64,000 bases of DNA from an uncultured Gammaproteobacteria bacterium (GTDB lineage Bacteria; Patescibacteriota; Patescibacteriia; 2-01-FULL-39-33), in assembly GCA_964512625.1 (NCBI GenBank), contig CAZEKG010000003.1:22953-86952 (forward strand), given 5' to 3'. The number at the start of each line of letters is the position of its first letter. The first letter of the stretch is position 1. The notes below the pieces were generated by a model that saw nothing but the letters and a program-made list of their open reading frames with translations, did not search any database and was not told the origin of the DNA. This document shows, one piece after another, positions 15,037-62,861 of this stretch. The position numbers were made by a program, and so were the translations under genes.

Positions 15037-15114
15037 AGTTATTGTGGATTTAGAGTTGCTTCGTTGATAAGCCAGTCATCATGAATGACAACTGACATGG
15101 CAAAAAAACAATTT

Positions 15115-15381
15115 TTATTTAGTGGCTTTCTTTTTCTTAGTAGCGGCTTTTTCTTTTGTTGCCGTTTTTCTAGCCTGTTCTTTTTGTTTTAAGGTTTTAG
15201 CCTTGGTTTTAATCTCGATGACTTGGCGGCCCTTGTAAGTACCGCAGAAATCACAAGCTTTATGAGGAGCAACCGGTTTTTGGCATTTTGAGCATGTATT
15301 CAAAACTGCTTTCTTAAGGGCAAAATGGGAGGCTCTTCTTTTAGCAGAGGACTTCGTTCTCTTTTGGCTGGGTAAACCCAT
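15115..15381 (-). CDS. rpmF: 50S ribosomal protein L32 with Lys-rich C-terminal extension
   Basis: KRRTSKS..RRASHFALK and CSKC...CDFCGYYKGRQV zinc-ribbon are typical of bL32; a Lys-rich tail follows. Confidence 0.8.
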   Translation of the reverse strand: MGLPSQKRTKSSAKRRASHFALKKAVLNTCSKCQKPVAPHKACDFCGTYKGRQVIEIKTKAKTLKQKEQARKTATKEKAATKKKKATK

Positions 15382-15451
15382 ATCACTTATGAATTATTTT
15401 TTAAGACAATTGAGATGGAAAGTAAAAATAGTTCCTTTTCAATCTTTCTGT

Positions 15452-15480
15452 ATTCTAACAGGTTTTTGCTCGTTTGGCAA
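15452..15480 (-). promoter_or_regulatory. promoter TTGCCA-N17-TAGAAT for rpmF
   Basis: Reverse complement of 15475-15480 is TTGCCA, 17-nt spacer, reverse complement of 15452-15457 is TAGAAT. Confidence 0.45.
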
Positions 15481-15523
15481 GGGAAAAGTGGGGTGGGCTA
15501 TTTTCTGTGGTTAATAAAAATAA

Positions 15524-15548
15524 AAAGGATTGTCTTGCGACAATCCTT
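15524..15548 (-). terminator. terminator of GC-rich ORFan 2
   Basis: AAGGATTGTC-TTGCG-ACAATCCTT followed by a T-run on the minus strand. Confidence 0.55.
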
Positions 15549-20373: not shown

Positions 20374-20433
20374 TTAAATTTATAGACCAAAGAAATTATA
20401 TGCTTAATAAGGTCTTTTGTCAATCGATCCAAG

Positions 20434-20506
20434 TAGGCCTGGGTGGAATTGAACCACCGACATCTACGTTATAAGCGTAGCGCTCTAACCCCTGAGCTAC
20501 AGGCCC
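20434..20506 (-). tRNA. tRNA with anticodon UAU (putative tRNA-Ile reading AUA)
   Basis: Perfect acceptor GGGCCTG/CAGGCCT, anticodon stem CTACG/CGTAG, loop CTTATAA giving anticodon UAU, T-arm GGTGG-TTCAATT-CCACC. Confidence 0.7.
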
Positions 20507-27756: not shown

Positions 27757-27761
27757 ACTTT

Positions 27762-28037
27762 TTATTTATTTTTCTTAGGTTTTAAAAATTTCATTATTTG
27801 CTCGGTAATCTCTTCCATGACGCTTAGATTAAGGGAATAAAAAACCTGCTGACCTTCTTTTCGGCCGGAAATTAGGTTTGATCTCTTAAGGATATCGAGG
27901 TGATGGGAGAGAGTCGGCCCGGTAATGGCTAGATGCCGGCCGATTTCGGAAACCGTCAACTCTTTTTTCTTTAAAAGATCAAGGATCTTGCGGCGGTTTT
28001 CGTCCGATAAGGCGGCAAAGGTCTTAGTCAGCGACAT
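27762..28037 (-). CDS. sdpR: ArsR/SmtB-family transcriptional repressor (SdpR-like)
   Basis: LSDENRRKILDLLKKKELTVSEIGRHLAITGPTLSHHLDILKRSNLI winged-HTH; 5-nt gap to the sdpI-like gene. Confidence 0.75.
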   Translation of the reverse strand: MSLTKTFAALSDENRRKILDLLKKKELTVSEIGRHLAITGPTLSHHLDILKRSNLISGRKEGQQVFYSLNLSVMEEITEQIMKFLKPKKNK

Positions 28038-28054
28038 ACGATAATATTAGATAG

Positions 28055-28070
28055 TTAGATATATATCTAA
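28055..28070. promoter_or_regulatory. 16-nt perfect palindrome TTAGATATATATCTAA, candidate ArsR/SdpR operator
   Basis: Sits ~20 nt upstream of the arsR-like start codon within its promoter region. Confidence 0.45.
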
Positions 28071-28164
28071 TTATATATCAAGGCGGAAAAAATGTCAAGA
28101 GCCTTGAGATAATATTCGTAAAATCATCTAATTAGCTCTTTAAAAAGTCTTTAATTATTAAAAA

Positions 28165-28200
28165 AAAGCCCCGGAAGATCTTCCGAGGCTTTAGGCATTT
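28165..28200 (-). terminator. terminator of the 28209..29801 gene
   Basis: GCCCCGGAAGATCTTCCGAGGC hairpin with flanking T-run on the minus strand. Confidence 0.6.
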
Positions 28201-28208
28201 TTCTTTTT

Positions 28209-38135: not shown

Positions 38136-38317
38136 ATTTTTAACTTAATTTATGTAATTAGGTCTTACTGCCTGGTAATACCTTTAGCTGAGCGGTTTTG
38201 TTTTAAATTAAAATAAAAAGGGGCTATTTCTTCTTTTAAGGGTTTAATTGTGTATAATTGAAACTTTTGGCTACTTTCAGCAATATTACCGATTATTAAC
38301 TAAAACTAAATAAATTT

Positions 38318-38467
38318 ATGTTAGTTACTATCGCCATTGTTTTAATCGTTTTGTGGCTTATAGGATTAGTTACATCTTACACTATTGGAGGCTTTATCCA
38401 TGTCCTTCTCGTTCTGGCCATTATTATGATCTTAATAAGGTTGATTAGGGGCCAGAGAGTTATTTGA
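38318..38467 (+). CDS. lmo0937-family small membrane protein (49 aa)
   Basis: MLVTIAIVLIVLWLIGLVTSYTIGGFIHVLLVLAIIMILIRLIRGQRVI matches the lmo0937 family pattern. Preceded by an extended -10 TGTGTATAAT. Not in the ORF track because it is <60 aa. Confidence 0.55.
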   Translation: MLVTIAIVLIVLWLIGLVTSYTIGGFIHVLLVLAIIMILIRLIRGQRVI

Positions 38468-38501
38468 GATTTTTTTGTGATTAATCCTTAAAAAACAAAA
38501 A

Positions 38502-38531
38502 CCCCGCCGCGAGAAATCGGGCGGGGTTTTT
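38502..38531. terminator. bidirectional terminator
   Basis: CCCCGCCGCGAGAAATCGGGCGGGG followed by TTTTT, between the small membrane protein gene and cspA. Confidence 0.75.
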
Positions 38532-38545
38532 GTGAGTTTAGGCTA

Positions 38546-38749
38546 TTAAGCGGCCATTTGGACGTTAACGGCATTCATACCCTTAGGAGATGATTCTGTT
38601 TCGAAAGAAACAGCATCGCCTTCGTGTAAATCAGAGAATTGAACTCCGACCAATGAATTGGCGTGGAAGAACAAATCTTTCTCTTGGCCTTCGGCAGTAA
38701 TGAAACCGAAGTTTTTCTCTTTTAATAGGGTTTTGATAGTACCTGTCAT
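38546..38749 (-). CDS. cspA: cold-shock protein (CspA family)
   Basis: GTIKTLLKEKNFGFITAEGQEKDLFFH RNP1/RNP2 motifs; 67 aa. Confidence 0.9.
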   Translation of the reverse strand: MTGTIKTLLKEKNFGFITAEGQEKDLFFHANSLVGVQFSDLHEGDAVSFETESSPKGMNAVNVQMAA

Positions 38750-38950
38750 AGAGTTGAGGCTTAGTTTTTAAAATTGTTTAAATAAAGATTTTAAAACCGA
38801 CAATTTTAAAACGCGATATTTCTCAGTTATTCTAGCATTTAAAGCTGGGAGTGTCAATGTTAATTTTTTTTGATTTTAGGCTAGCTTAAAAAAGTTTGCT
38901 TGATTTGACAAATAAGAGGTAAGATACTATTCTATTAAGATGGTTATTTT

Positions 38951-42449: not shown

Positions 42450-42473
42450 AATTATAAAAAAGAGATATATAAA

Positions 42474-42500
42474 AATCCCCGTTGAGAGGGGATTTTTATT
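42474..42500 (+). terminator. terminator of the ABC exporter operon
   Basis: AAAATCCCCGTTGAGAGGGGATTTTT hairpin followed by a T-run. Confidence 0.7.
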
Positions 42501-42812
42501 TTTGGGTCAGGCACTGTCGGGTCTTATAACAGTGCTCGAGGATAAAGAGTATATGGTTACTTTACGGGAAAAAATGAATAATATCAAGAAAGTTGCCAAG
42601 TTTTACAATTACGACCTCCTGCTAGCCAAAAAGTAAAACGTTATTGCCCCTTGTCTGCCCTTGGGGCGAGCTTTGTACCCCGGGTAGACCTTTGACACCT
42701 CCTGCGACATAGCCCACCGGTTTGACGAATTTTGAAAGCTTGGGACGATTTGCTTAACTTCGGAAAAGTTAAGCAAATATGACTCCGCTAGACTTGTTCT
42801 CCGGGCGAGCGT

Positions 42813-43136
42813 ATGTTCTTGCTTGCTATGGAAGACGATGACATTGAGGCGATCCTTCGGGACGCTAAAAACATAAGAATGCCACATCGACGCGGATCAT
42901 TTAATCCGTTATCTTCACTTCCGGAACCTAAAGCCAAGATCAAACAAGCGATTAAAGAACGAATCAGACTCTTGGCTGGTGCTTATATCTCGCTCGCTGG
43001 ATTTGTTGATGATGACGATATCAGGTTTGCCGAGGATAATCCAAAGTCAAAGAAAACTCGAGCAATATATCTCAAAGTGCTCGAGGACATGGAAATAGCA
43101 AAGAAAGAGATGCGGGAGTTCAAACTGTTAAATTAA
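42813..43136 (+). CDS. hypothetical protein (GC-rich segment at the left edge of the defense/mobile island)
   Basis: 107-aa ORF in a ~500-nt GC-rich patch; weak RBS; converges on the STAND gene with a 33-nt gap. Confidence 0.3.
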   Translation: MFLLAMEDDDIEAILRDAKNIRMPHRRGSFNPLSSLPEPKAKIKQAIKERIRLLAGAYISLAGFVDDDDIRFAEDNPKSKKTRAIYLKVLEDMEIAKKEMREFKLLN

Positions 43137-43169
43137 ATACCCCTTAGTTTAATCGTAATTTGTTTCTTT

Positions 43170-57381: not shown

Positions 57382-57613
57382 TTTTATTTCTCCTTTTTTG
57401 CTTTTTCGCCGTTCTTAGATAAGAATTCTATTCTCCGCGGGGACATGTTAATCGCATGTCTTCGCGAAGTTTGGAAAAATAGCAACTTAAAATTAATAAT
57501 ATTAAATTATCCGGGCAGATGTTTATTTGAATGCAAGCGTTTTGGAAATCAAGAGGATTCCAGGCCGGCTGTTTTCAAATAAAACTCAAGCTCCGGAAAT
57601 GAAGGAGAATCGT

Positions 57614-59851
57614 ATGTTTAAAAACCAAGTTTTTGAAACAGAGTTTGCCGGGCGAAAATTCAGCGTTGAAGTCGGCAAGCTGGCTTTGCAAACCAACGCT
57701 TCCTGCTTAGTCAGGTATGGCGATACCGTCGTTCTCGCTACTGCCGTTATGGGCAAGGAACCGAGAATGGGAATTGATTTTTTTCCGTTGACTATCGAAG
57801 TCCAGGAAAAAATGTATGCTGTCGGAAAAATCAAAGGCTCGCGCTTCGTTAAGCGTGATGGCCGACCGACCGATAATGCCGTTTTAGACGGCCGTATGAT
57901 TGATCGAGGCCTTCGGCCGCTTTTCAATCCTGAAATGAGAAACGAAGTCCAGGTCGTTTCCACTATTCTTTCTTATGATGAAGAAAATGAAGCTGACTTA
58001 TTAGCTATTACTGCTTCGGCGATCGCGCTTCATATTTCTGATATTCCTTGGAACGGTCCTTTGGCCGGAATTTGTGTTGGCCGAATCAATGGCGAATTAT
58101 TTATCAACCCGACTATCAAGCAATTGGAAGAGTCTGACTTGAAGTTAGTTTTTTCAGTCGGTTACGATAAGGTTTTAATGGTTGATGCGGAAGCGGCAGA
58201 AGTGTCTGAAGTGGATATGGAAAAGGCTTTTGCTTTTGGCCTTGAAAAAGTAAAGCCGCTTTTGGATTTCATCGAGAAGATAAGAAAAGAAATCGGCTTA
58301 GAAAAACAGGATGTTAACGCACTGATCGAATTGGCTCAGGCGACCGGAGAGATTTCCATTGCCGAGAAGAAATCCGCTTTTGAGGAAGCTAAAAAATTCT
58401 TTGCGCCTCAGCTTGATAAATATTTATTCAATCAGCCAAGAGGTACTAAGCGCGAAAGGAAAGAAATTGCTAAAGAGCTTTTGAAAAAGTTAGTAGAAGA
58501 ACTTAAATCGAAAGAAACTAACGAGGAAATAATCAGTTACATCAAAGATAATTTCGAAGCCTATCTTGAGGAAGAAGTGACGAAAGCAATCTTAGATAAA
58601 GATTTAAGAATCGACGGAAGAAAGATTGATCAAATCAGGCCGCTTAGCTCGGAAGTAAGTATTCTTCCAAGGACTCATGGTAGCGCTATTTTTATGCGCG
58701 GAGAAACTCAAGTTCTTTCTATTGTTACTCTTGGTTCGCCGGGCGATGCTCAAATATTAGATGAGATGACCGAGAGCGATACGAAAAAAAGATATATGCA
58801 TTTTTATAACAGCCCGCCTTTCGCTTTCGGCGAGCCTGGAGCTTTCCGTGGCGCTGGCCGAAGAGAAATTGGCCATGGGGCTTTAGCGGAGAAAGCTTTG
58901 ATACCGGTTTTACCGGAGAAGGAAGTCTTTCCTTATACGATCAGCTTAGTTTCTGAGGTTATGGGCTCTAATGGCTCATCTTCTATGGCCTCGACTTGCG
59001 CTTCGACCTTAGCTCTTATGGATGCTGGCGTACCGATTAAAAAACCGGTGGCTGGAATCGCGATGGGCTTAGCCTCAGACGGCAAGAGATGGAAGGTTAT
59101 TACTGATCTTCAAGATCTTGAAGATGGCCAAGGCGGTATGGATTTTAAAGTTACCGGAACTAAGGACGGCGTAACCGCTATCCAAATGGATACGAAGACG
59201 GAAGGCTTGAGTCTTGATATTTGCACTCAAGCTTTAAACCAAGCTTTGGCTGCTAGATTGACTATTCTTGAGGATATGGCGAAAGCGATTGCCGAGCCAA
59301 GGAAAGAATTGTCGCCTTATGCTCCAAGGATTGTTTCCTTCATGATTAATCCGGAAAAAATCCGCGAGGTTATTGGTTCAGGCGGGAAAGTCATTAACGG
59401 CATTATTGATGAATGCAAAGTTGAAATCGATATCGAAGATGATGGTTCAGTCGCGGTTACCGGTACGGATGCTCGCGGCGTAGAAAATGCTGTTAATTGG
59501 ATCCAGGCTATCGTTAAGGATGTTGAAGTTGGAGAAATCTATAATGGTACCGTTACTAGACTGATGGATTTCGGCGCTTTCGTTGAAATCTTGCCGGGCA
59601 AAGAAGGTTTAGTCCATATTTCCGAATTCTCTAATGAGAGAGTTGATAAGGTTACTGATGTCGCTAAAGTCGGCCAGGAATTAACTGTTAAAGTTTTTGA
59701 AATAGATTCTCAAGGAAGAGTAAATCTTTCCGTCAAGCGCGCTAGGCCGGATTACAATCCGGATAATGATCAAAGAGGCGGCGGCAGTGATCGCGGTAAT
59801 GGTTCCAGAGGCGGATTTAATGCCGCTCCGAGAAGAGACCGAAGGTTCTAA
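57614..59851 (+). CDS. pnp: polyribonucleotide nucleotidyltransferase (PNPase)
   Basis: Two RNase PH domains, KH and S1 domains; ATG with AAGGAGA RBS; Gly/Arg-rich C-terminal tail. Confidence 0.9.
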   Translation: MFKNQVFETEFAGRKFSVEVGKLALQTNASCLVRYGDTVVLATAVMGKEPRMGIDFFPLTIEVQEKMYAVGKIKGSRFVKRDGRPTDNAVLDGRMIDRGLRPLFNPEMRNEVQVVSTILSYDEENEADLLAITASAIALHISDIPWNGPLAGICVGRINGELFINPTIKQLEESDLKLVFSVGYDKVLMVDAEAAEVSEVDMEKAFAFGLEKVKPLLDFIEKIRKEIGLEKQDVNALIELAQATGEISIAEKKSAFEEAKKFFAPQLDKYLFNQPRGTKRERKEIAKELLKKLVEELKSKETNEEIISYIKDNFEAYLEEEVTKAILDKDLRIDGRKIDQIRPLSSEVSILPRTHGSAIFMRGETQVLSIVTLGSPGDAQILDEMTESDTKKRYMHFYNSPPFAFGEPGAFRGAGRREIGHGALAEKALIPVLPEKEVFPYTISLVSEVMGSNGSSSMASTCASTLALMDAGVPIKKPVAGIAMGLASDGKRWKVITDLQDLEDGQGGMDFKVTGTKDGVTAIQMDTKTEGLSLDICTQALNQALAARLTILEDMAKAIAEPRKELSPYAPRIVSFMINPEKIREVIGSGGKVINGIIDECKVEIDIEDDGSVAVTGTDARGVENAVNWIQAIVKDVEVGEIYNGTVTRLMDFGAFVEILPGKEGLVHISEFSNERVDKVTDVAKVGQELTVKVFEIDSQGRVNLSVKRARPDYNPDNDQRGGGSDRGNGSRGGFNAAPRRDRRF

Positions 59852-59933: not shown

Positions 59934-61319
59934 ATGTTTCTTTTATTTCTAAAAGTCATCGCCAGTCTAAAAAAAATCTCCTTGCGCCGCACCGGCTTAA
60001 TCGCCCTTGCGGCGGGAGGGATTTTTTTATTATTGAGCTCGATTTATTGGCAAAAAAATGTCGGTGATAATTTAACCGGTCGAATCCCTTCCGGCGTTGA
60101 GGTTTATTTTCGCTTGAGCTATCCGCGGACCGCAATCATGCCTCAGCTTAAGGCGTTAAACCGCCAGATTTTTAATGACTTAGGGATTGGAGAAATTCCT
60201 GATTGGCAATTAGCTCGTGAACTGGGAGTTTTTAGTTTTGATGCCGCCAAGGCTGATAAGTATTATCTTATTTTAACGACTGATTCGAAATCGGCGCTGG
60301 AAGATTTTATAAAAAGCAAAAATTGGTCTTATTATTTTTTAAATCGGCGGACGGTTTTAGTTTGTTTCAGTCCTGATTGCCTTAATCTTTATAATCAGGC
60401 GTTAGCTAAGGGCAGGCTTATTAAAACGGCTAAAGTTGGTAAACCTCTTAGCTTATCAACGATGAATCTTTATCTTAATTCTTCGGCAACTCAATACTTT
60501 TCTCTTGAAAATGGCGGCTGGCCTCAGCTACTTTGGCAATTATATGGCAATGATCAGGGGTTTTGGTTAAATGCTAAGGCGCAAAAGACGGGTTTGAAAA
60601 TTATTTTGTCTAATGCTAAATCTGAAAGGAAGGTAAGGTTGCCTCAATCGGCCGATAATTACGATTTGATTTATAGCCTTGATCACTCTAAGCAGGCAGG
60701 GTTTTTAGGGGATTATTTTAGTTTGACAGCTAAGCAAAGCGGTTTGGAGGTTGATAGCCAATTAGCAAAGAAATTAATGTCTGGCCAAGCCTTATTTTTA
60801 ATTAGTAAGAAGGCTTTCATATCAAGTTCGACTCTCGCTTCTTCAACATCTTCGACGGCCGTATCATTAGCGACTTCGACTAGGTTTTTTGTGGAAAATG
60901 ACTTTTGCTTAAAGTTTAAGCCGGGAGAAGTCGTTTTAAACGGGGAAATCAAGGAGTTGGAGGAAAGTCTTAAGTCTTTGATAGCTTTGGGTAGGGTAGG
61001 TAGGAAGCGGGTTTGGCTAAGCGATAATTCCTCGGTTATAGAATTAGTCCCAGATAAGGAGGGTATCGCCTTTAATCTCGAGAATGGTTATTTTATGTCC
61101 GATTTTAAGGATCAGGCTTTTAAGCTTGGCTATAAAACAGAAAAAGGGGAGGTTTATGTGACTAATAACTCAGAATTTTGTAATAATAGCCTAAATTACA
61201 TAAAATATGATTATTGGCAATTAAAAAAGGCGCTCTGGCCAAATAGTCCTATTTTTACTAAATATTTAAGCCAGTTTAATGTTTTAAGTGTGAACGGTGA
61301 GTTCATTTATTTAAAGTAG
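59934..61319 (+). CDS. hypothetical membrane-anchored protein with Ser/Thr-rich linker
   Basis: N-terminal TM helix, SSSTLASSTSSTAVSLATST low-complexity tract; no recognisable domain. Confidence 0.5.
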   Translation: MFLLFLKVIASLKKISLRRTGLIALAAGGIFLLLSSIYWQKNVGDNLTGRIPSGVEVYFRLSYPRTAIMPQLKALNRQIFNDLGIGEIPDWQLARELGVFSFDAAKADKYYLILTTDSKSALEDFIKSKNWSYYFLNRRTVLVCFSPDCLNLYNQALAKGRLIKTAKVGKPLSLSTMNLYLNSSATQYFSLENGGWPQLLWQLYGNDQGFWLNAKAQKTGLKIILSNAKSERKVRLPQSADNYDLIYSLDHSKQAGFLGDYFSLTAKQSGLEVDSQLAKKLMSGQALFLISKKAFISSSTLASSTSSTAVSLATSTRFFVENDFCLKFKPGEVVLNGEIKELEESLKSLIALGRVGRKRVWLSDNSSVIELVPDKEGIAFNLENGYFMSDFKDQAFKLGYKTEKGEVYVTNNSEFCNNSLNYIKYDYWQLKKALWPNSPIFTKYLSQFNVLSVNGEFIYLK

Positions 61320-61468
61320 TTTTATAAACAGGTTGTGGATAAGTTGTTTAAAATCAGTCATATACCTGAGGTTAAACTGTTGATAACTTTTGTTGTTATG
61401 ACAATTTTATCTAAAATTAGATAAAGTTAATTATTGTTGACATGTTCAAAATATGCTATAATTACTTA

Positions 61469-61919
61469 TGTAAGAAAGTTCTTTAAATTGATTCCAGCCA
61501 GGAAGTTGCGAAAAAGGGAAGATAAACTTTTTTCTCAGGTTCCTATCATTTACTCTGCGAGACGTAAACGGGAGACAACAGGCTTATCCCACGCCTTTTA
61601 TGCATTTTGCATATACGTCTTTCAGTTAGCACTGATTTAGCTCTCAGCCCACAAAGAGGCTTGCTTGATCCTTGCAACTGTTGCGAGGTAGATGATACGT
61701 ACATGTCCAAACGATGTATACCGCCTGAGTATACCCAAGACAATCCCAAGATTTGAATCCTTTGGCCGTTGCCAACGACCTTTTCCGCTCCCCCTAGGAG
61801 CAACTCCAGTCGGCGATAGCCAAAGCAAATCCGCAAGGATTTCGAAGGCGTCATGAGACCCTCACAAAGTAATACTTAGGAGGCTAGCTCTCGGGCGCCT
61901 ATTCTTTTTCTTTTTTTTT
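61469..61919 (+). ncRNA. candidate structured non-coding RNA (unassigned family), GC-rich
   Basis: -10 TATAAT at 61457-61462 (with TTGACA/TTGTTG -35). ~450 nt with no credible ORF or RBS, GC far above flanks, T-rich terminator tract at 61903-61919. Contains a T-arm-like CCAAGA-TTTGAAT-CCTTTGG element and several short hairpins. Confidence 0.4.
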
Positions 61920-62018
61920 AAAAACTATTGTGCTATAATCCGGTTATGAATCGCGGTGCTCAGTAGGGCATCAATAAGAAAAGGGGAAGGCCTTTTCCAA
62001 TATGAATAATTAAAAATC

Positions 62019-62387
62019 ATGGATCAACAAACTCTAAGCGAATTTAAAGCTTTATTGGAAGCTAAGAAGGCTCGCTTGAAAGAACAATTGGAAAGCGTAA
62101 GCGTTAAGTCGGAAAACGGCGATGGATATGAGGCGGAGTTTCCTCAGTACGGCGATTCGATGGAAGACAACGCGAGCGAAGTCGCTGATTATACTAAGAA
62201 CCTGACTTTCGAAAGGGATTTATCTAAAGAGTATGAAGATGTTGAAAAATCCTTAAAAAAGATCGAGGAAGGCAAGTACGGCATTTGCTCTCATTGCGAA
62301 GAAGAAATAGAAATCGAAAGGTTGCGCGTCCGCCCCGAGTCCAGTTCCTGCGTCAAATGCAAGATGAAGCTCAAGGGTATTGCTTAA
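62019..62387 (+). CDS. DksA/TraR-family C4-type zinc-finger protein
   Basis: CSHCEEEI...17 aa...CVKC zinc finger at the C-terminus after a coiled-coil; own TATAAT at 61933-61938. Confidence 0.75.
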   Translation: MDQQTLSEFKALLEAKKARLKEQLESVSVKSENGDGYEAEFPQYGDSMEDNASEVADYTKNLTFERDLSKEYEDVEKSLKKIEEGKYGICSHCEEEIEIERLRVRPESSSCVKCKMKLKGIA

Positions 62388-62393
62388 TTTAAT

Positions 62394-62861
62394 ATGTCTG
62401 ATTATAAAAAGCTTCTCTTAGTCAGTATCGTTCCTGCGTTGCTTTTTATAGTCGATCGTTTTTTTAAATATCTTTTCTTAGTCCCGCTTTATGATTCAAA
62501 CGGGATTTTGATTTTTCAGGATTGGTTTCGTTTGAAATTGGCTTTCAATCCGGGCATTGCTTTCGGTATTGGGGTTAATTTTTATTTGATTATCATCTCG
62601 TATATTTTTATCTTGAGCGGTTTGGGATTTTTAACGATTCGAGCCGTTAAGGAAAAGGCCTGGTCGGAGATATTTTTTCTTTTCTTGATTATTCTCGGCG
62701 CGCTCTCCAACCTTGCCGATCGGCTGGGCGCGGGCGCGGTTATCGATTATTTTGATCTTAAGTATTATAGCGTTTTTAACCTTGCCGATGTGATGATCGT
62801 CGGCGGAGCGATTGGGGTTTTTGTATTGTTATTCAAGCGGGATAGGCTGAAAAAAAGTTAA
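62394..62861 (+). CDS. lspA: lipoprotein signal peptidase II
   Basis: FNPGIAFGIG and NLADRLGAGAVIDYFD...FNLADVMIVGGAIG signature regions. Confidence 0.85.
   Translation: MSDYKKLLLVSIVPALLFIVDRFFKYLFLVPLYDSNGILIFQDWFRLKLAFNPGIAFGIGVNFYLIIISYIFILSGLGFLTIRAVKEKAWSEIFFLFLIILGALSNLADRLGAGAVIDYFDLKYYSVFNLADVMIVGGAIGVFVLLFKRDRLKKS

Follow-up and report, generated by a model that had tools for sequence, protein, structure and literature searches.

OLE, ROOL, GOLLD and the raiA motif are large structured bacterial RNAs whose function is unknown or only partly known, and they are the closest in kind to the element described here. It lies in a 64,000-nucleotide stretch of contig CAZEKG010000003.1 (assembly GCA_964512625.1, positions 22,953 to 86,952 of the forward strand; GTDB lineage Patescibacteriota, 2-01-FULL-39-33), which is called the window in the following and to which all coordinates refer. 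The element occupies about 61468-61905 on the plus strand, upstream of a gene for a DksA/TraR-like protein, and we assign a probability of roughly 80% to the reading that it is a stand-alone, highly structured non-coding RNA (ncRNA) of a family outside Rfam. Like the four RNA classes named above, it is several hundred nucleotides (nt) long, has many covarying helices and tertiary contacts, is restricted to certain lineages, was discovered by comparative genomics and would be independently transcribed, in this case from predicted signals; OLE moreover also has a fixed neighbouring partner gene. It differs from them in its host, which belongs to the Patescibacteria or Candidate Phyla Radiation (CPR), in its helix topology and in its neighbourhood, which consists of the dksA-like gene and lspA, and it has no match in Rfam 15.

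6S RNA and Ms1 RNA are abundant stand-alone RNAs with strong promoters, and the only link of the element to them is the adjacent gene for an RNA polymerase-binding factor of the DksA/TraR type. 6S RNA is a rod of ~180 nt with a central bubble, whereas the present RNA has a multi-junction fold with a kissing loop and does not match the 6S model. The tmRNA-smpB system is alike in that an RNA gene and one protein gene have stayed neighbours in distantly related genomes with differing genes on the other side, but the element has no tRNA-like domain and no tag frame, the window contains no smpB gene, and a partnership with the DksA-like protein is a conjecture. The cobalamin riboswitch resembles the element in a junction closed by a helix (here P3) and in the topology of the kiss between P4 and P6; it differs in that the element matches no cobalamin model, has a large extra 3' domain and is followed by a separate promoter before the downstream gene. 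The likenesses to RNase P RNA (a P4-like string), tmRNA (a T-arm-like string and A-rich tracts) and the cobalamin riboswitch are superficial; the defining features of these RNAs were tested for and not found.

Conservation and covariation of the element

The original prediction, made from the sequence alone, had proposed a structured ncRNA of unassigned and perhaps lineage-specific family, and this proposal has held: neither the element nor any of 32 related loci gave a match in Rfam, and both conservation and covariation were very strong in the relatives. Rfam 15 was searched at the gathering score with the whole window and 20 related loci, and at E ≤ 10 with the window region 61200-62100 and 12 related loci. 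At the gathering score, seven tRNAs and nothing else were found in the window, and the 20 related loci had no match to any family, including OLE, ROOL, GOLLD, raiA and HEARO. At E ≤ 10, nothing credible was obtained for 61200-62100 or for the 12 relatives. ARAGORN reported no tmRNA, either standard or permuted, in the window or in 26 relatives, and a search of the literature yielded no description of such an RNA.

The DksA-like protein on its own, used as the query for related loci, retrieved none. A scan with a protein profile fetched 80 metagenome loci and 59 genome loci, the named ones belonging to Candidatus Buchananbacteria, Uhrbacteria, Magasanikbacteria and the Parcubacteria/Patescibacteria group. 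The homologues of the DksA-like protein share up to 64% identity, and the contigs encoding them keep the order pnp, unknown gene, gap of 550-630 nt, dksA, lspA. In a four-way alignment, the promoter, internal blocks and the terminator were conserved. Because the comparison of the window RNA with the fetched loci by single-sequence nhmmer gave nothing useful, a nucleotide profile was needed, and it was built from 28 relatives. This profile retrieved 50 matches with E-values from 1e-74 to 8e-4. Most of the element is spanned by 46 of these (35 distinct sequences; E = 1e-74 to 1e-17), which are Buchananbacteria-like, and at all 46 loci it is located on the plus strand directly upstream of the dksA-like gene, with lspA next. 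The window itself matched the profile with E = 3.7e-38 over 61468-61907.

The secondary structure was analyzed with an alignment of 34 sequences (A3), in which 50 pairs were named; they belong to T1, the basal helix of the terminator, and to the helices P2, P3, P7 and P8. Two scans, one of column pairs and one of mutual information, converged on the same helices. Standard pairs were present in 93.1% of the alignment cells, compared to 45-47% when the 3' partner was slid by one to three columns. Changes on both sides were observed in 41 of the 50 pairs, and 247 cells were changed on both sides where 81 were expected. None of 500 shuffles, a control uncorrected for phylogeny, reached any of the observed covariation measures. 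When RNAalifold was run blind on A3, it returned the same five helices with 46 pairs, 38 of which showed compensatory changes.

The 5' region contains a conserved single-stranded motif, GUUCUUU (61478-61484; GyWCYUU in relatives), which was seen in the alignments A3 and A4 and in the Magasanikbacteria-type loci. P2 is an irregular 15-bp hairpin formed by 61500-61516 and 61528-61544 and was obtained by covariation and RNAalifold; its 15 pairs, 12 of them compensatory, are paired in 93.6% of cases. A covariance model of the 5' domain, R1, scores the window at 54 bits. In two loci (L106:1503-1942 and L026:1953-2430) the apical loop of P2 contains an insertion of 60-100 nt, and this loop therefore tolerates large additions. 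P3, likewise found by covariation and RNAalifold, is a long-range helix of 14 pairs that closes a junction. Its 5' strand (AUCAUUUACU followed by UGCGA, 61545-61560) pairs with its 3' strand (UGCG followed by GGUAGAUGAU, 61682-61696), with an invariant UAC/GUA core and outer pairs that occur in up to five types. Enclosed by P3 are the hairpin P4, variable hairpins, some of which are specific to the window, and the hairpin P5b (61643-61665), which has a conserved loop, CCACAAAGAG (61649-61658), on a stem that varies among relatives.

In the 3' region, P7 (61760-61764 with 61821-61825) encloses P8 (61767-61773 with 61812-61818), into which the window has a specific insertion at 61774-61811. Both helices emerged from covariation and RNAalifold, and their 12 pairs are all compensatory and 90% paired. 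The hairpin P9 (AAAUCC-GCAA-GGAUUU, 61827-61842) was read from the sequence, and a short hairpin is found there in relatives. The terminator hairpin, assigned by homology and by hand, is composed of the strands 61846-61863 and 61879-61900 and the loop 61864-61878. Its basal helix T1 has nine pairs in relatives, eight of them compensatory and ~95% paired; in A3 the 3' strand of the window is displaced by one column, and its pairs were checked by hand. Two motifs highlighted in the original prediction have no place in the conserved fold. A T-arm-like element (CCAAGA-TTTGAAT-CCTTTGG), given as ~61735-61755, is actually located at 61746-61766 and belongs to J6/7 and P7, its CUUUG at 61760-61764 pairing by covariation with CAAAG at 61821-61825. 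A proposed hairpin CGTTG-C-CAACG (61767-61777) would have a loop of 1 nt, and covariation instead places 61767-61773 in P8.

The loop of P4 is complementary to that of P6. In the window, P4 (61570-61590) consists of GGGA, the loop GACAACAGGCUUA and UCCC, with the kissing bases CAGGC at 61579-61583, and P6 (GUAUAC-CGCCUGA-GUAUAC, 61716-61734) contributes GCCUG at 61723-61727. The complementarity is present in nearly every member and is achieved by at least 13 different sequences, including UCGAAC/GUUCGA, GGAGC/GCUCC, UGGGC/GCCCA, UGAGCU/AGCUCA, UAGGC/GCCUA, UGGAC/GUCCA, CUGACUA/UAGUCGG and GCUUGC/GCAAGU. For 29 curated members, cognate loop-loop duplexes had a mean energy of -8.3 kcal/mol compared to -3.5 kcal/mol for non-cognate ones, and the cognate mean was reached in none of 10,000 permutations. 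The loci L004 and L046, which are without the P4 loop, are also without a matching P6. The P4-P6 contact is a kissing loop supported by covariation, though it might also form between two molecules. For a second pseudoknot, in which the P5b loop would pair with GUUCUUU near the 5' end, a test gave no statistical support (cognate -5.34 versus non-cognate -5.26, with 3961 of 10,000 permutations as good), despite striking single cases such as a pairing of 11 bp in L003.

Transcription signals and genomic neighbourhood

The promoter of the RNA was located at 61434-61462 by its sequence and its conservation in relatives. A -10 region TATAAT (61457-61462) preceded by TTGACA at a distance of 14 nt or TTGTTG at 17 nt had been proposed, and all three are present, TTGTTG, taken as the -35 region, at 61434-61439 and the overlapping TTGACA at 61437-61442; in addition, a TGn motif (TGC, 61454-61456) extends the -10 region. 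The start of the RNA is predicted at about 61468-61470. The T tract and the separate promoter of the dksA-like gene that had been proposed to delimit the element were also recovered: the tract follows the terminator hairpin at 61901-61919, and the extended -10 region of the dksA-like gene, TGCTATAAT, is located at 61931-61939, separate from the RNA and marking its boundary. A simple consensus scan of the window listed neither the promoter nor the terminator of the RNA, because the -35 region is weak in this genome and the loop of the terminator is long.

Among the 34 relatives, TTGnnn and TAnnnT with a spacer of 16 to 18 nt were found in 30, mostly as TTGAC(A/C)-17-TATAAT, and an extended -10 region TGnTATAAT occurs at the same place in 33. 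A T-run after the last hairpin is likewise present in 33 of the 34, and in 28 a further -10-like site, T(G/A)nTAnnnT, lies between the T-run and dksA, in most cases in the form TGnTAnnnT. Since these signals are conserved, the RNA and the dksA-like gene appear to be adjacent yet separate transcription units, with a predicted strong promoter belonging to the RNA itself. The size of the RNA is ~440 nt in the window and ~340-400 nt in relatives. The assignment to the plus strand follows from the conserved orientation of the transcription signals and from the helices, whose numerous G-U pairs would read as A-C mismatches on the opposite strand. Compared to shuffled sequences, folding gave z = -3.9 for the plus strand and z = -2.0 for the minus strand. 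The GC content of 61468-61900 is 0.462 and ranks in the top ~10% of 433-nt windows. The earlier statement that it is far above the flanks was correct with respect to the immediate flanks (0.236 and 0.322), but the value exceeds the genome average only moderately, the whole window being at 0.407.

The gap containing the element measures 699 nt and extends from an open reading frame (ORF) for 461 aa (59934-61319, plus strand) to the gene for the DksA/TraR C4 zinc-finger protein (62019-62387, plus strand; Pfam PF01258), which is followed by lspA for signal peptidase II (62394-62861, plus strand; Pfam PF01252); the linkage of both genes to the RNA is based on synteny. The pnp gene encoding polynucleotide phosphorylase (57527-59851) is located farther upstream. 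The 461-aa protein has no Pfam match and an apparent N-terminal hydrophobic segment, and its ORF between pnp and the RNA is conserved only in the closer, Buchananbacteria-like relatives. We take the pair of DksA/TraR-like gene and lspA to mirror ylyA-lspA downstream of ileS in Bacillus subtilis, and in that order the structured RNA occupies the place where ileS and its T-box leader would be. A T-box relic, suggested by the order ileS-ylyA-lspA, was rejected as there was no T-box match.

Elsewhere in the window, other ORF-poor stretches of 450-815 nt, defined by no ORF of ≥110 codons and no Rfam match at the gathering score, are located at 15037-15529, 27757-28208, 38136-38950 and 42450-43169. 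ARAGORN predicted a tRNA-Ile with the uncommon anticodon UAU at 20433-20506 on the minus strand; in most bacteria, AUA is decoded by a lysidine-modified CAU tRNA.

Distribution among distant relatives

Many loci that had no match to the nucleotide profile contain an ORF-free gap of 500-900 nt before dksA. At a threshold of E ≤ 0.05, the covariance model R1 recovered only three distant loci, L113 (E = 5.6e-5), the Uhrbacteria locus L139 (E = 0.011) and L080 (E = 0.051), so that a search with a helix descriptor is the basis for the wider distribution. The descriptor of P3 (...UACY, 55-190 nt, RGUA..., with ≥9 of 10 pairs) was applied to 71 gap loci and matched 26 of them on the plus strand and 9 on the minus strand, with ~10 expected from shuffles. 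In about 18 of the 26, the spacing to dksA is consistent and the flanks covary, for example CCUUGCUACU/GGUAGCGAGA.

Both P3 and the kissing contact are kept in Uhrbacteria-type loci, in one genome of the Parcubacteria group and in other Patescibacteria loci. Several of the loci matched by the descriptor also have a strong P4-P6 kiss, such as ACUGGC/GCCAGU and CGCCGA/UCGGC, with energies of -8 to -12.7 kcal/mol. In Magasanikbacteria-type loci, the 5' GUUCUUU motif, P2 and P3 are kept, and a convincing kiss was looked for there and not found. Within P3 of distant homologues, the P5b loop CCACAAAGAG is replaced by a conserved A-rich single-stranded tract (GAAACAAAAACAAAA or similar), and the two may be the same functional site in different form. 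This tract was seen in L065, L120, L131, L118, L139, L080, L050 and L060, 400-300 nt upstream of dksA.

The gene upstream of the RNA varies in the distant loci, where carA on the opposite strand, a gene of the AP_endonuc_2 family, an unknown gene or, directly, pnp is found; despite this change, the RNA is still followed by the dksA-like gene and lspA, in that order. In the Buchananbacteria-like loci L018-L021, L032, L034, L043, L094 and L109, around position 2501, the space before the dksA-like gene is shorter than 125 nt and holds no RNA; the upstream context is a different one, with a gene for ~240 aa and, on the other strand, one for ~410 aa. When viral contigs were scanned with the P3-signature pattern, there were 120 matches, all of which were due to chance, as none had an nhmmer match. 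As far as seen, the RNA is restricted to a set of CPR lineages.

Alternative explanations and possible role

Because the element matches no catalogued family and holds a constant place upstream of the gene for the DksA-like protein, it is, on the evidence available, apparently a new bacterial RNA class; the element itself is real and well defined. Several points weigh against this reading. Every locus was fetched via the dksA-like gene, with copies elsewhere in the genomes outside the view, so that the constant position next to dksA is partly a matter of ascertainment, and some Buchananbacteria-like loci have a dksA gene without the RNA upstream. The kissing duplex and the terminator of the window itself were assigned by homology, and the ends of the transcript are predicted only. 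A window-specific hairpin, UACAU-GUCCAAACG-AUGUA (61700-61718), overlaps the 5' strand of P6 (61716-61721); the two are mutually exclusive, and the hairpin competes with P6. Relatedness of the sequences enters the shuffle control of covariation, whereas the slid controls and the count-type measures are robust to it. Finally, we infer the function of the RNA in its entirety.

Among the alternatives, a cis-acting leader or attenuator of dksA-lspA survives best, although we regard it as improbable. It would be riboswitch-like or protein-binding, and its structured domain would sense a signal and set the formation of the terminator. Consistent with this idea, the element is on the same strand as dksA and directly upstream of it even where the upstream neighbour is a different one, the 5' strand of its terminator has a conserved sequence, and its junction, closed by a helix and kissing a 3' hairpin, is reminiscent of large aptamers, that of the cobalamin riboswitch among them. 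However, the -10-like site between the T-run and dksA in 28 of the 34 relatives speaks against it, although some read-through into the gene is conceivable, and with 340-450 nt the element is far above known leaders in size. An antiterminator pairing was looked for by eye and none was seen, no riboswitch aptamer or T-box model matched the window or the 12 relatives even at E ≤ 10, and some dksA-like genes do not have the element upstream. The unusually long leader or riboswitch listed as an option in the original prediction received no direct support, and the same holds true for its 6S-like option, as the architecture is not a rod of the 6S type.

Far less probable is a universal RNA, i.e., RNase P RNA, tmRNA, signal recognition particle (SRP) RNA or 6S RNA, that has diverged so strongly in this lineage that the Rfam models missed it. 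A length of 340-450 nt and a strong promoter do resemble rnpB and ssrA, and there is a short, chance-level likeness of GACAAnnGGCUUA to the 3' strand of RNase P P4 and of GGUAGAUGA to CUAGAUGAAUGA. The absence of RNase P, tmRNA and SRP hallmarks had been noted before, and neither the models of these RNAs and of 6S RNA, searched at E ≤ 10 with 61200-62100 and 12 relatives, nor ARAGORN, run on the window and 26 relatives, gave a match. RNase P RNA has conserved P4 strands, GGAAAGUCC and ACAGAAnCCGGCUUA, in that order. As a candidate suggested by GACAAnnGGCUUA and GGUAGAUGA it was rejected: GACAAnnGGCUUA, the sole P4-like string, is the variable P4 kissing loop of the element and lies 5' of any GGAAAG-like string, and no P4 consensus is present on the right strands and in the right order. 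A helix between the 5' and 3' ends, corresponding to RNase P P1, was found neither in the covariation scan nor by RNAalifold, and the 3' end of the RNA is formed by a self-contained terminator hairpin. tmRNA had been suggested by the A-rich tracts, by the string resembling a T-arm and, in L065, by stop codons within the loop of a hairpin; it was rejected as well, since no tRNA-like end with CCA and no conserved tag frame were found. The multi-junction fold of 340-450 nt is also not the ~180-nt rod with a central bubble that 6S RNA forms.

The least probable explanation, a small protein gene or decaying coding or mobile DNA without RNA function, could draw on the only long ORF in the element (61546-61854 on the minus strand, 102 codons) and on stop-free frames of more than 100 codons in a few relatives, but the longest such frames, compared on both strands of 35 relatives, vary between 32 and 126 codons and are conserved neither in position nor in length or product, the window ORF has no BLASTP match among them, the substitutions in the helices are compensatory, promoter and terminator are conserved on the plus strand, and there are no repeats or mobile-element genes nearby. 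In line with the original prediction, the segment contains no conserved ORF.

The stand-alone ncRNA that we favour has the following fold. In the 5' half, P2 abuts P3, which closes a multi-helix junction of P4, a variable P5 and P5b. The loop of P4 kisses that of P6, situated immediately 3' of P3, over 5-7 bp, a contact that would clamp the junction, and the 3' half is built from P7, P8, P9 and the terminator hairpin. This scaffold would present conserved unpaired bases to a partner, namely the 5' GUUCUUU, the P5b loop or A-rich tract, UAUGAAU, CAGAC and CCGUAG. The RNA would act in trans, either as a scaffold or as the RNA subunit of a ribonucleoprotein (RNP), and its partner might be the DksA-like protein or RNA polymerase, with a mode of binding like that of 6S or Ms1 RNA. 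The DksA-like pathway seems the most likely one because the RNA stays upstream of the dksA-like gene across divergent lineages while the other flank changes; a link to the DksA-like protein or to RNA polymerase, drawn by analogy with 6S or Ms1 RNA, is nevertheless a guess that we would call doubtful. Factors of the DksA/TraR type act in the secondary channel of RNA polymerase. Our tentative proposal, for which we claim low confidence, is an undescribed RNA class, conserved in several CPR candidate phyla, that either is the partner of a DksA/TraR factor on RNA polymerase, and so a functional analogue of 6S or Ms1 RNA structurally unrelated to them, or is the RNA subunit of a new RNP or ribozyme peculiar to these bacteria with reduced genomes.

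CPR bacteria, or Patescibacteria, have tiny genomes with little non-coding DNA. Despite this, an RNA gene of ~400 nt is kept in several of their lineages, and it combines a promoter close to the consensus with a fold of multiple junctions and a tertiary contact that covaries. Large structured RNAs of a new class are seldom found, and earlier ones proved to be ribozymes, RNP scaffolds or global regulators. The fixed linkage to the gene for a DksA-like RNA polymerase factor provides a testable lead, a structural model is ready, and the size of the RNA is suited to cryo-electron microscopy. The class would add a family to Rfam and would improve the annotation of thousands of CPR genomes.

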